Positions 41,311-58,773 of a stretch of DNA of 64,000 nucleotides are shown piece by piece (position 1 is the stretch's first letter; every line of letters starts with the position of its first letter). Source of the stretch: a bacterium. GTDB lineage: Bacteria; Sysuimicrobiota; Sysuimicrobiia; Sysuimicrobiales; Kaftiobacteriaceae. The translations under genes were made by a program, and so were the position numbers. Under the pieces are notes generated by a model. It saw only the letters and a program-made list of their open reading frames with translations. It ran no database searches and was not told where the DNA came from. The stretch is from the NCBI GenBank assembly GCA_035300645.1, contig DATGVF010000076.1, positions 59-64,058 of the forward strand, written 5' to 3'.

Positions 41311-41790
41311 TTATGGGGCGGTGGTGTCCACGAGCATGAGCAGCTGCCCGTATTCGACCGGGGAAGCGTTTTCCACCAGAATCTTCGCTACGCGTCCCCG
41401 GACCTCACTTTGGATCTCATTGAAGAGTTTCATTGCCTCGATGACGCACACCGCTTGTCCGGGTTCGACCGCGTCGCCTTCGGCGACGAACGGCGGTGCG
41501 TCGGGCTTGGGCGCGCGGTAAAATGTCCCGACCATCGGGGCGGTGATGGGCACGAGCTGGTCGGTCGGCCCGGTCGTCACCGAGGGCGGGGCGAACGGGA
41601 CTGCTCCAGGGGAGGTGGAGGGGGAAGCAGAGGGGGTCGAGACGACCGCCCGGACTGCGCCCGCGACCTTTCTCACAACAACCTTGAGGGTCTCCGACGC
41701 CACCTCCAACTCTGCGACGTCCGGCGACTCACTGGCAATCTTGATGACAGCCCGGATCTGATCAAGGTCGAGCTTCGGCTCGGTCACCAT
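41311..41790 (-). CDS. accB: Biotin carboxyl carrier protein
   Basis: EAMKLFNEI biotinyl-lysine motif and a Pro/Ala-rich linker; 159 aa. Confidence 0.85.
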
Positions 41791-42769
41791 CGCCTCCCGC
41801 GGCCAGGGTCTCGACGACCCGGCCGATGCGGCGGTACTTCGCGTACCGTCGGTCTAGAAGAACTTCGCGGGGCACCTCGCGCAACGCCTTCAGGTGTCGG
41901 CCCAGCCCATCACGCACGACGCGAAAGACCGCCTCGGCATCCCGGTGCGCCCCGCCCAGGGGCTCGGGAAGGACTTCGTCTATAATGCCCAGGTCCTGGA
42001 GGTCGCGGGCGGTCAGCTTGAGGGCGGCGGCCGCATCGCGCCCGCGCGAGGCGTCGTGCCAGAGGATCGCGGCACAGCCTTCGGGAGAGATCACCGTGTA
42101 GACGGCGTACTGCAGCATCAAGACCGCGTCCCCGACCGCGATCGCCAGGGCCCCTCCGCTGCCGCCCTCGCCTGTGATCACCACAAGGATGGGGGATTTT
42201 AAGCGGCTCATCTCTTGGATGTTGCGGGCGATCGCCTCCGCCTGGCCCCGTTCCTCCGCTTCAGCACCCGGGTGAGCGCCAGTGGTGTCGACAAACGAGA
42301 TGACCGGGTAGCCGAATTTCTCGGCCAGCCGCATCGCCCGTAGGGCCTTCCGGTACCCCTCGGGATTGGGCATCCCGAAGTTTCGGGCAACGTTTTCCTT
42401 CGTGTCCTTTCCTCTATTATGGCCCACCACCACGACCGGCTGGCCGTCGAAGCGACCCAACGCGGTCAAGAGGGCGGGGTCGTCCCCGTACAGCCGATCC
42501 CCGTGGATCTCGATGACGTCGGTAAACAGAGACCCCAGAAAATCGACCAAACGGGGTCGCTGGATCTGGCGAGCGAGCTGCACGATGTGCCAGGGCGAGG
42601 GATTGCGGTAGATCTCCTCCCGCAGTTGCGCCGCCCGTTGCTCCAGCGCGGCGATCTCCGTTTCCCGCGACCCGGACTGGTCGCGGGCCCGCACGCGCAC
42701 GATTTCCTCCTCAAGTTCGGCGAGCTGATGATCGAGATCAACAGCCGGGCGCGGGGGGCGTTGCGTCAT
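41762..42769 (-). CDS. accA: Acetyl-CoA carboxylase carboxyltransferase alpha subunit
   Basis: Crotonase-like carboxyltransferase domain with GGSGGALA, 335 aa. Confidence 0.85.
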
Positions 42770-43641
42770 GGCTGCGCGGCGGGAGCGGGTTCCTGCGGCG
42801 TTGGCGCAACGCGAGGAGCACCGAAGAAGGCGAGGAGCCGGGCCACGGTGGGGCGCATCTCGACGCGCGAGACGACCATGTCGATTAATCCCCGCTGCAG
42901 GCAGAACTCGGCGGTTTGGAAATCGTCGGGGAGTTTGCGGCGAATCGTCTGCTCAATGACCCGCCGACCCGCGAACCCGATGAGCGCGCCCGGCTCGGCC
43001 AGGATCACATCGCCCAAGAAGGCGAAGCTAGCCGTCACCCCTCCGGTCGTGGGGTCGCACATGACGGAGAGGTAGGGCAATCCGGCCTCGTGGAGCCGGC
43101 CGATCGCGGCACTCGTCTTGGCCAGCTGCATCAGGGAGAGGACACCCTCCTGCATGCGGGCACCGCCGGAGGCGGAAAAGACAACAAGCGGCAAGCGGCT
43201 CTGCACCGCCCGTTCCGCGGCGCGCGTAATTTTCTCTCCGACCGCCGATCCCATCGAGCCACCCATGAAGTTGAAGTCCAACGCGGCGATAACGGTGCGC
43301 CAGCCGTCAATTGTGCCATCGCCCGTGATCACGGCCTCGGCCTGGCCCGTTTTCTCTCGCGCCTCGGCGAGTTTGGCGCCGTACCCCTCGAAGCCCAGCG
43401 GGTCGGTCGAGGTCAGCGATGCATCGTACTCCTCAAACGCATGCTCGTCTAGAGTGATTTCCAAACGCTCCACGGCCGAGAGGCGGTGATGGTAGCCGCA
43501 CTTCGGGCACACCATCAGATTCCGCTCCAGTTCTTTGCGGTAGATGAGGTTGCGGCAGCGCGGGCATTTATCCCAGATGCCGGCCGGCATCTCGCGGCGC
43601 TCCAGCGAACCGTACTTGGGCCGGCGCAACCAGTTCAGCAC
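42766..43641 (-). CDS. accD: Acetyl-CoA carboxylase carboxyltransferase beta subunit
   Basis: N-terminal zinc ribbon CPRCRNLIY...[10 protein letters not shown], 291 aa. Confidence 0.85.
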
Positions 43642-43754
43642 GTCGCACCTGCCGGGAGAAGAGAGGATGACTGCGAAATACGATTATAGCCTACCCGCGT
43701 CGTGCCGAGCAAATCTCGGTTACGCGCCGGCGGACGCGGATCGCACCCGCGCGC

Positions 43755-44042
43755 GTGCAGAAGAGAGAGTCCATCGACCGCTCGCGCATCCAGATGCGAT
43801 GGAAAGTGTACCCATCTGGTCATTCTTTCAGTCGGCGCGCGTCGACGATCCTGACGCAGGGGGATCCATCCCAGAGTGCTTGCGTTCCCGTCTTCAACGT
43901 CGAGTACGTGCTGAACCTGGCGCCGGATGCCTACGCGAAGTCCTACGCCCATGGATTTGTTCCCGATGTCACGCGGAGCTCGCTGGGCGCGCTGACCACG
44001 ACACCGCCACCAGACTCCCTCAAGACGGACGCGCCCAAGTAG
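43755..44042 (+). CDS. Candidate short ORF in a long intergenic region (strong GC3 bias only in the 3' half; start unclear)
   Basis: The 3' ~150 nt show the genome-typical C/G-ending codon bias. No homology recognised; could be a gene remnant. Confidence 0.2.
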   Translation: MQKRESIDRSRIQMRWKVYPSGHSFSRRASTILTQGDPSQSACVPVFNVEYVLNLAPDAYAKSYAHGFVPDVTRSSLGALTTTPPPDSLKTDAPK

Positions 44043-44078
44043 GCATCACGGCACCCAACTGGGCTACCTTCCCCTGCG

Positions 44079-44106
44079 TTGCTGGTGCGCATTCAATTGT
44101 TATAAT
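44079..44106 (+). promoter_or_regulatory. Sigma-70-type promoter: -35 TTGCTG, 16-nt spacer, extended -10 TGTTATAAT
   Basis: TTGCTG 44079-44084 and TATAAT 44101-44106 preceded by TGT. About 130 nt upstream of the htrA ATG. Confidence 0.55.
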
Positions 44107-44235
44107 GAACAGAGCAACTATTCGTTCGCGCAAGGACTCATTGCGATCGGCTTGAAGCAGCCAATATGGCGGGGCAAGACAGTCGATTTGCAACCCACTG
44201 ATCCCACCACATAGGAAGCGGGGCTGAGGCGTTCA

Positions 44236-45366
44236 ATGCGCATGCGTTTGAACACGACGCCGAACAATTTTCTCGTCCTGGTCGTGCTTGCCGCGGTCGT
44301 GGGCGGCACGGTAGGCACCGCCGTTTTGCCGAAGTACGTCGGCGGGGCTTCGCCGACCAACTCGGCCCCCGCGCCTGAGATGCTACCCCCGCAGATTGCT
44401 CAGACGCCACCTCCGCCCCCCACGACGCTCACGCCAGAAGAGCTCACGATCATCCACGTGGTCGAGCGGGTGCGCCCGTCCGTCGTGAACATCGATACGG
44501 TGGCCCAGGTCCAGACGGCGGTCGGGATCTTCCCGCAGAAAGGCGCGGGGTCCGGGGTGATTGTGAGCCCCGATGGCTACATCTTGACCAATAACCACGT
44601 TGTGGAGGGTGCCCAACAGATCAGGGTCACCTTATTGTCGGGCAAATCCTACACGGCACGGCTGGTGGGCGCCGACCCTTTTTCCGACGTCGCGGTCGTC
44701 AAGGTGCAAGCCCCCGATCGCCTCTCCGCCGCGCAGCTGGGGAACTCCGGGGCGCTACGGGTCGGTCAGCTCGCCGTGGCGATCGGAAACCCCTTTGGGT
44801 TAGGGCACACCGTGACGGTCGGCGTCGTGAGCGCGCTGAATCGTAGCATTGAGCGGGAGAGTGCCGCGGGTCCGAATATCGAAAACCTTATTCAAACCAG
44901 CGCCGCAATCAACCCGGGCAACAGCGGCGGAGCGCTGGCCGACAGCGCCGGGTCGATCATCGGTATCAACACCGCGATCATTCCCTACGCCCAGGGCATC
45001 GGCTTCGCGATTCCGATCGATGCGGCGCGCGCGATCATGGATCAATTGATCCGCAACGGGCGCGTCATCCGGCCGTATGTGGGGATCACGTTCGGCGGCG
45101 ACATTGACCCCGGCACCGCCAACCAGTACAACCTCCCGGTCGACCACGGCGTGTTCGTGCGGGAGGTCAGCCCCGGCGGCCCCGCGGCCGCGGGGGGATT
45201 GCAGGCCGGCGATATCATCGTGGCGGTTGACGGCAAACGCATCAGCAATTGGAATGAGTTCATCCGCGAGCTATTCAGCAAGCGCCCGGGAGATCGTGTC
45301 CGCATCGAGTACTTCCGCGAGAGCAAGCGGGGAACGGCGGAGGTTACCCTCGGCCAACGCCCCTAG
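44236..45366 (+). CDS. htrA: HtrA/DegP-family trypsin-like serine protease with a PDZ domain
   Basis: N-terminal TM anchor, TNNHVV, GNSGGAL catalytic-Ser motif, C-terminal PDZ; 376 aa. Confidence 0.85.
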   Translation: MRMRLNTTPNNFLVLVVLAAVVGGTVGTAVLPKYVGGASPTNSAPAPEMLPPQIAQTPPPPPTTLTPEELTIIHVVERVRPSVVNIDTVAQVQTAVGIFPQKGAGSGVIVSPDGYILTNNHVVEGAQQIRVTLLSGKSYTARLVGADPFSDVAVVKVQAPDRLSAAQLGNSGALRVGQLAVAIGNPFGLGHTVTVGVVSALNRSIERESAAGPNIENLIQTSAAINPGNSGGALADSAGSIIGINTAIIPYAQGIGFAIPIDAARAIMDQLIRNGRVIRPYVGITFGGDIDPGTANQYNLPVDHGVFVREVSPGGPAAAGGLQAGDIIVAVDGKRISNWNEFIRELFSKRPGDRVRIEYFRESKRGTAEVTLGQRP

Positions 45367-52079: not shown

Positions 52080-52196
52080 TCTGCAGGCAGACCTCCTCGT
52101 GCTCGGAGACCGGTGTGAGAGGGGGGCTGGTTGTCCGAGACGTCATCACGTGCTACAATGCTCTGGCTTTTCCGGCGCCTCTCGCCTGAGGCGGGG

Positions 52197-52212
52197 GGCG
52201 TCAATTGACGCC
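52197..52212. promoter_or_regulatory. Perfect 16-bp palindrome GGCGTCAATTGACGCC 27 nt upstream of rpmE; candidate operator, preceded by a TACAAT -10-like box (52154-52159) and a small hairpin (52176-52193)
   Basis: Exact palindrome read directly from the sequence. Confidence 0.35.
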
Positions 52213-52238
52213 GGGGCTTAAAGCGTGCGGCGTCCGAG

Positions 52239-52451
52239 GTGTTCCAGATGAAAAAGGGAGTCCATCCTGCGTACTACCAGGCGACAGTGACGTGTGCTTG
52301 CGGCAACACGTTTTTGACGGGGTCGACCAAAAAAGATATCCGCGTCGAGATCTGCTCACGCTGCCACCCGTTCTACACCGGCGAGCGCAAGTTTATTGAT
52401 GCCGAAGGCCGGGTCCAGAAGTTTGCCAAGAAATACGGGCTGAAGGTGTAA
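52239..52451 (+). CDS. rpmE: 50S ribosomal protein L31 (Zn-ribbon C+ form)
   Basis: [10 protein letters not shown]...CACGN...[10 protein letters not shown], 70 aa. Confidence 0.95.
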
Positions 52452-52482
52452 GCGCGTTCGACGGGTCCAAAAAAGATTAACG

Positions 52483-58764: not shown

Positions 58765-58773
58765 TGCTATAAT
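58765..58773 (+). promoter_or_regulatory. Extended -10 promoter element TGCTATAAT upstream of the L25 gene
   Basis: TGC plus TATAAT (58768-58773); weak -35 TTTCCC at a 17-nt spacer. Confidence 0.4.

Follow-up and report, generated by a model that had tools for sequence, protein, structure and literature searches.

The genes accD and htrA lie back to back in the 64,000-nucleotide stretch of DNA analyzed here (the window), with accD on the minus strand, htrA on the plus strand and a spacer of 594 bp between them. The contig has a GC content of 64% and belongs to a clade of uncultured soil bacteria whose metagenome-assembled genomes (MAGs) were labelled Armatimonadota by their depositors. Gene order around the spacer is accB, accA and accD on the minus strand, and htrA followed by argS on the plus strand. 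The start codon of accD is a GTG at 43641, and htrA has a second ATG at 44242 that aligns with the start codon of the outgroups (tblastn against L088 starts at query residue 3). An earlier note on this DNA had singled out the spacer as unusually long at about 600 bp, and measurement bears this out, as it is the longest run without a gene-like open reading frame (ORF) in the window, the runner-up being 403 bp at 52080-52482. The gene map used was crude; the other apparent large gaps were re-checked, and all but 52080-52482 hold gene-like ORFs. The spacer region is identical to that of the MAG contig DAIUEU010000001.1 (GCA_036844965.1). Its features are as follows:

42766-43641, minus strand: accD, acetyl-CoA carboxylase carboxyltransferase beta subunit (Pfam Carboxyl_trans and Zn_ribbon_ACC; also called on public contigs)
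43642-43676, minus strand: predicted accD 5' UTR, with the transcription start placed from the sequence
43683-43712, minus strand: accD promoter-like site, TTGCTC at 43712-43707, an 18-nt spacer and TATAAT at 43688-43683 (pattern match)
43713-43866, no strand assigned: relic noncoding DNA, found 5' of the glycosidase start in gene-keeping relatives (alignments to L086, L090 and L087)
43755-44042, plus strand: 95-codon ORF with a GTG start, NCBI hypothetical protein VK201_04005, read here as a composite of 38 fortuitously open codons and a gene remnant
43807-43833, plus strand: bipartite block TGTACCC-N16-AGTC, with spacing conserved in relatives
43867-43871, no strand assigned: deletion junction (alignments)
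43872-44042, plus strand: what is left, at the 3' end, of a GH114/GH191-type (TM1410-like) glycoside hydrolase gene, its final 56 codons and a TAG stop (tblastn)
44079-44106, plus strand: predicted htrA promoter P1, -35 TTGCTG at 44079-44084, a 16-nt spacer and extended -10 TGTTATAAT at 44098-44106 (sequence and conservation)
44113-44235, plus strand: predicted htrA 5' leader of about 123 nt, with the start placed about 7 nt after the -10
44236-45366, plus strand: htrA, S1C serine protease with a PDZ domain (Pfam Trypsin_2 and PDZ)

A search of 43400-44500 against Rfam (E<=10) returned only a chance snoRNA match inside accD. Across the whole window no Rfam model matched at its gathering score, and a scan for tRNA and tmRNA was likewise empty; the 403-bp run at 52080-52482 has no Rfam match at E<=1. 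No repeat or mobile-element copies of the leader or the remnant were found elsewhere in the window or in other loci.

The 95-codon ORF had been described as gene-like in its 3' half and not in its 5' half, and base composition agrees. The 3' part (43872-44042) has GC contents of 0.61/0.49/0.79 at codon positions 1/2/3, against 0.64-0.75/0.43-0.49/0.78-0.82 in the real genes of the window, and the 5' part (43755-43868) has 0.53/0.53/0.71. When the ORF was used in a word-indexed protein search, the only matches were the ORF itself and three relatives, which share its C-terminal part and have unrelated N-termini, so a fragment was suspected. Pfam gave no match to the 95 amino acids, and no Shine-Dalgarno sequence precedes the GTG at 43755, the ATG at 43794 or the internal GTG. 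Two other ORFs, an overlapping one of 203 amino acids on the plus strand and one of 105 amino acids on the minus strand, were set aside as spurious, having the wrong GC3 phase and no Pfam match.

The source of the 3' half is apparent in contig L086, whose HtrA is 92% identical to that of the window. Here an intact 372-amino acid glycoside hydrolase gene lies between accD and htrA, in htrA orientation and with a host-like composition (GC3 of 0.78). When the L086 protein was used in tblastn, residues 317-372 matched window positions 43872-44039 with 79% identity (E=2e-22). The C-terminal end of the protein (...CVPTFNVEYALTLAPDAYAKSYARGYVLYVTRRSLGALTTTPPPDYFKIDAPK*) and the window ORF are collinear between 43872 and the stop codon (44040-44042). 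The protein matches Pfam PF03537 (Glyco_hydro_114) over residues 94-354 (E=6.6e-13, 48.9 bits against a cutoff of 27) and TIGR01370 (MJ1477/TM1410) at E=9e-35, the latter score of 120 bits lying below the cutoff of 181. It also matches the PDB entries 9ep5, 2aam, 9eux and 9euz. All four structures, 9ep5 (Env-GH191), 2aam (TM1410) and 9eux/9euz, are assigned to a new family, GH191, which is sister to the GH114 endo-alpha-1,4-galactosaminidases (PMC12054363). An exhaustive HMMER search with a 100-amino acid ORF of contig L085 (P0002) found 157 proteins, and the match was nearly always to the C-terminal ~93 residues of much longer ones; a GH114 domain was present in six of six matches tested.

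The catalytic domain of GH114 and GH191 is a (beta/alpha)8 barrel of about 230-300 residues with a catalytic Asp and Glu. The window remnant corresponds by homology to the C-terminus of such enzymes (PF03537; TIGR01370; PDB 2aam, 9ep5), but it comprises 56 of about 372 codons and lacks the N-terminal region and every barrel strand before the last. Instead of a complete barrel with both catalytic residues, the window holds residues 317-372, at most 38 of which belong to the domain. Judged from its sequence, the remnant cannot work as a hydrolase, since only about 15% of the barrel enzyme is left.

The 5' half of the ORF has a different origin. Within 43755-43866, window positions 43779-43866 align with DNA that in L086 and L090 precedes the start codon of the glycosidase. 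At 43867-43871 approximately 1.0-1.1 kb of the L090 and L086 sequence is absent, namely the rest of the upstream region and glycosidase codons 1-316, and the identical junction is found in the independent assemblies L001, L002, L089, L092 and L095. The frame of the 38 N-terminal codons is noncoding in relatives and is interrupted by a stop codon in L085. The coding-like look would thus be confined to the 3' half because the 5' half is former upstream DNA and the 3' half a gene remnant. On this comparative reading the 95 codons do not make up a gene but a pseudogene fragment, with a 5' half that is open by chance. Of the two options that had been proposed, the degraded gene is therefore borne out, given the match to the last 56 codons of the L086 gene, and the short gene starting further downstream is not supported.

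We compared 14 orthologous spacers from relatives whose HtrA identity is 92% or higher, collected by a metagenome scan with a conserved leader pattern and by contig look-ups. The locus exists in at least eight states, comprising the intact gene, an in-frame stop and six different deletions:

State 1, L086: intact gene
State 2, L090: full length, with CAG changed to TAG at codon 54 (L090 1248-1250)
State 3, L085: last 113 codons
State 4, the window, L001, L002, L089, L092, L095 and the right side of L084: last 56 codons
State 5, L097 (matches protein P0004): last ~35 codons
State 6, L091 and L094: first ~25 codons joined to the last 7
State 7, L087 and L096: no coding sequence, with the DNA upstream of the gene present
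State 8, L003 (98-99% identical to the window): an extra deletion of ~211 bp at 43839-44049, with the entire remnant and its stop gone

The intact state of L086 and the stop of L090 are each represented by one metagenomic contig. The TAG at codon 54 of L090 may be a true nonsense allele or an error of sequencing in that single contig. Read as a set, the alleles imply that there must have been at least four independent inactivations, namely the L090 stop, the L091/L094 deletion, the L087/L096 deletion and the series L085/window/L097/L003, because states 2, 6 and 7 and the nested series of states 3, 4, 5 and 8 are not derivable from one another. Outgroups have spacers of only 151-284 bp without the gene (L088 with 82% HtrA identity, L098 with 78%, L100 with 75%, L101/L103 with 73% and L104 with 70%), and L005, which is beyond these outgroups in distance, has a short spacer too. 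Since the outgroup spacers are short and lack the gene, the simplest history would be one insertion in the ancestor of the clade with HtrA identity of at least 92%, followed by repeated loss that is still in progress.

Taken with the homology and the deletion alleles observed here and the conservation of the promoter motif described below, we consider it about 90% probable that the spacer is the debris of an inserted and mostly deleted glycoside hydrolase gene, that the ORF is a pseudogene fragment and that P1 is probably a real promoter. The spacer would then measure 594 bp because it has the wreck of a gene inside it. Under this reading, a recent ancestor of the clade would have carried a GH114/GH191-type (TM1410-like) gene of ~1.1 kb between accD and htrA, in htrA orientation. 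A deletion of ~1 kb in the window lineage would have removed the proximal upstream region together with codons 1-316, leaving behind the last 56 codons and the stop (43872-44042), and this remnant would by chance have come to lie directly behind, and in frame with, 38 open codons of what had been upstream DNA, giving the 95-codon ORF. The functional content would lie at the two ends of the spacer, with the accD promoter and its short leader on the minus strand and htrA P1 and its ~123-nt leader on the plus strand.

Substitution patterns were compared between the intact gene and the remnant. Over the whole glycosidase gene, L086 and L090 differ by 33, 20 and 96 substitutions at codon positions 1, 2 and 3, respectively, so constraint acted on the gene for most of the divergence between the two. 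For the remnant the corresponding counts are 1/6/8 between the window and L090 and 1/7/6 between the window and L085, and htrA gives 9/4/48 for the latter pair. The remnant differs from htrA (Fisher p=0.017) and shows an excess at position 2 (p=0.01), although these counts are small. Compared with the intact glycosidase pair, positions 1 and 2 against position 3, the remnant does not differ significantly (p=0.41), again with small counts. Purifying selection on the remnant was not found, either in the position counts, small as they are, or in its distribution, as it is deleted in L003, L087 and L091. The structural evidence is stronger than the substitution counts: the remnant covers 15% of the barrel domain and has no Shine-Dalgarno sequence, and a near-identical strain lacks the fragment.

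These data bear directly on whether the ORF, or a version of it with a later start, could be a real small protein, that is, a C-terminal hydrolase fragment with a new function. The frame is open in the window and in the five near-identical assemblies L001, L002, L089, L092 and L095, the GC3 of the 3' part is gene-like, and the NCBI pipeline annotates a hypothetical protein. However, no candidate start has a Shine-Dalgarno sequence, the 38 N-terminal codons are noncoding in relatives with the L085 stop in the same frame, and gene-like GC3 is what the fragment would inherit from its parent gene. The fragment is shorter or missing in L097, L091/L094, L087/L096 and the near-identical L003, and its substitutions are as frequent at position 2 as at position 3. 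Compared across relatives, the check that the earlier note itself had put forward, the ORF taken as a gene is not conserved, and we regard a functional small protein as very unlikely.

An assembly artefact, in which the long spacer or the remnant came from a chimeric or collapsed contig, was also considered, as the related contig L084 is clearly a hybrid. Against this, the exact junction and its flanks recur across projects, in an NCBI MAG, in ENA, in two WNF* records and in JGI Ga0099794, and an artefact is hardly credible as an account of the window. L084 (the same as L093, JGI Ga0137415_10040908) is identical to the window from 43902 rightwards. Positions 1-821 of its locus are unrelated DNA (52-56% GC), in which an ORF (MHVHIVGNG...) runs on in frame into the remnant; this left part stems from chimeric assembly or from a true rearrangement. 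The MHVHIVGNG... gene, presumably amidohydrolase-like, has no match in Pfam, NCBIfam or PDB over the L084 part. It was entertained as the source of the remnant and rejected, being foreign DNA of 52-56% GC, the true parent being the gene seen in L086.

The promoter that had been proposed for htrA, TTGCTG, a 16-nt spacer and TGTTATAAT, is located exactly at 44079-44106, and TG[ACT]TATAAT is invariant in 13 of 13 relatives' spacers read in alignments and listings (HtrA identity of 70-100%), the rest of the spacer being unalignable. The -35 is more variable: TTGCTG or TTGCTC is present in most of the clade and in L088, and is absent from L086 and L100. The window's TTGCTG matches the consensus at three of six positions, and a consensus promoter and terminator scanner reported no sites in 43400-44500 because its rule requires a -35 with at least four of six. 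Within the 64 kb, TGNTATAAT occurs at two sites against 0.10 expected, and none of 100 shuffles reached two. The window's other TGnTATAAT (TGCTATAAT) is at 58765-58773 on the plus strand, approximately 50 nt 5' of an ORF starting MERVTLEAKTREGLGKNQVRRLR, and this position next to an ORF start suggests that the motif may mark real promoters in this genome.

In sigma-70-type promoters with an extended -10 (TGn), the extended -10 can carry recognition. P1 resembles these in having TG one base before a perfect TATAAT, a weak -35 and a 16-nt spacer, and a conserved TGnTATAAT with a variable -35 therefore fits a promoter recognized through its extended -10. It differs from the extended -10 promoters of sister lineages in a predicted leader that is about 100 nt longer. 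All deletions stop upstream of P1, the nearest being that of L003 at 29 nt before the -35. Because TGnTATAAT is conserved in every relative and spared by every deletion, P1 is probably real.

A second conserved element is the bipartite block at 43807-43833. The spacing T[GA]CCC-N15/16-AGTC is kept in the outgroups L088, L098, L100, L101 and L103 within spacers that are otherwise unalignable, and in these five lineages the block stands 35-45 nt 5' of the htrA -35. It is also present in all deletion alleles that extend that far: the deletions of the L097, window and L085 alleles start 9-60 nt 3' of the block, and the extra deletion of L003 starts 5 nt after it. The block shows no enrichment within the 64-kb window. 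Promoters of the ECF-sigma type, such as that of E. coli degP, have a GGAAC-like -35, a CGTC- or TCnAA-like -10 and a spacer of 16-17 nt. E. coli degP, a protease gene of the same family, is served by a sigma-E/CpxR promoter, and htrA of the window likewise has an upstream block together with a housekeeping-type promoter. The -35 half of the block is unlike GGAAC and the known ECF consensus sequences, no match to the consensus GGAAC...TCnAA/CGTC is found and no cognate sigma factor was identified, so this is resemblance and not membership. By analogy, htrA may have a second promoter in this block, of an ECF-sigma-like type, or the block may be the site of a regulator; if so, the glycosidase gene would have been inserted between the block and P1.

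This arrangement raises the question of whether repeated loss of the glycosidase has been selected, and not neutral, by restoring the ancestral geometry of the htrA control region. Such a reading, in which the block would be a stress promoter of the ECF-sigma type or an activator site, follows from every deletion having spared both the block and the extended -10, and from the L003 deletion, which brings the two to ~37 nt apart, as in the outgroups; we consider it unlikely. The accD promoter, the bipartite block and the htrA extended -10 survive every deletion and are candidate functional sites.

The earlier note had suggested that the long htrA leader could host a thermosensor or another regulatory structure. 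The leader contains GAGG at 44226-44229, and an in-frame stop at 44212-44214 upstream of the htrA ATG rules out an N-terminal extension of HtrA. The long leader is found only in the clade with HtrA identity of at least 92%. The -10 is 130 nt before the ATG in this clade and only 35-38 nt before it in outgroups, whose leader is about 28 nt; by this difference, about 100 nt have been added to the leader in the window's clade. In well-studied bacteria htrA is a heat and envelope-stress gene, and a cis-regulatory RNA in which ~44129-44146 pairs with the Shine-Dalgarno sequence and AUG at 44226-44240, acting as a thermosensor or binding site that occludes the ribosome-binding site, is a candidate. 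RNAalifold, applied to six related sequences from about four lineages, does predict a long-range helix between the 5' part of the leader and the GAGG and AUG. In the consensus, 93.7% of paired cells are standard pairs, and there are three compensatory pairs, against 1.0+-0.9 in shuffles, a number reached by 28 of 500 shuffles.

Nevertheless, the pairing measures as a group are reached by 28-46 of 500 shuffles of these six related sequences, and the covariation term is unfavorable at +0.53. The minimum free energy of the leader, -37.5 kcal/mol, is no better than that of shuffled sequences (z=+0.83; 157 of 200 shuffles fold with equal or greater stability), and no Rfam family matches at E<=10. 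Identity of the leader between lineages is 0.67-0.84, not above the 0.77-0.87 of htrA third positions, indicating change at about the synonymous rate, and some 28 nt of leader suffice in every outgroup. Predicted folding of the leader over the Shine-Dalgarno sequence and AUG is a likeness to RNA thermometers such as ROSE and fourU; unlike these, it has no family match and its fold is not better than chance. The suggestion of a regulatory structure thus gained no positive support from Rfam, folding energy, identity or covariation, and an RNA of this kind seems decidedly unlikely; we infer that the leader has no special regulatory fold. Two further candidates within the region were rejected: an 11-codon upstream ORF (ATG at 44166) that is not conserved in L086 or L087, and an inverted repeat (44086-44096 / 44232-44242) that we attribute to chance, as one arm is 5' of the predicted transcription start and the repeat is not conserved in L085.

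Like other remnants of pseudogenes that deletions have left between bacterial genes, that of the window is truncated, promoterless, variable in extent among close relatives and relaxed in its substitutions; in contrast to the usual case, the locus is unusually well sampled, with eight states captured in metagenomes. The main value of the analysis is a correction of annotation: the entry VK201_04005 ought to be marked as the 3' fragment of a pseudogene, and a simple history accounts for the length of the intergenic region. An ordinary decaying pseudogene beside conserved promoters is a known kind of feature and is no surprise to a specialist. A minor point is that the locus shows, with good resolution, an uncultured soil lineage in the course of losing a gene, with eight states and at least four independent inactivations, and it is mildly noteworthy how well public metagenomes capture such stepwise loss.

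At the other end of the spacer, TTGCTC, an 18-nt spacer and TATAAT form a probable accD promoter. Both GATTATAGCC and GCAAA at this site are conserved in all relatives, and the block corresponding to the accD 5' UTR hardly varies in any of the relatives with HtrA identity of 73% or more. The accD Shine-Dalgarno sequence, AGGTG, is the reverse complement of 43646-43650. Firing of this promoter and of P1, as well as the positions of both transcription starts, is predicted from sequence. Downstream, accB and accA overlap by 29 nt (41762-41790) and accA and accD by 4 nt (42766-42769), and these overlaps point to a tightly coupled accD-accA-accB operon that would be transcribed from the spacer promoter. 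Finally, accD is called as two pieces of 180 and 151 amino acids in L109 (GCA_031459735.1, 256-1349), where five sister assemblies have a single gene; the split is a frameshift or an assembly error.
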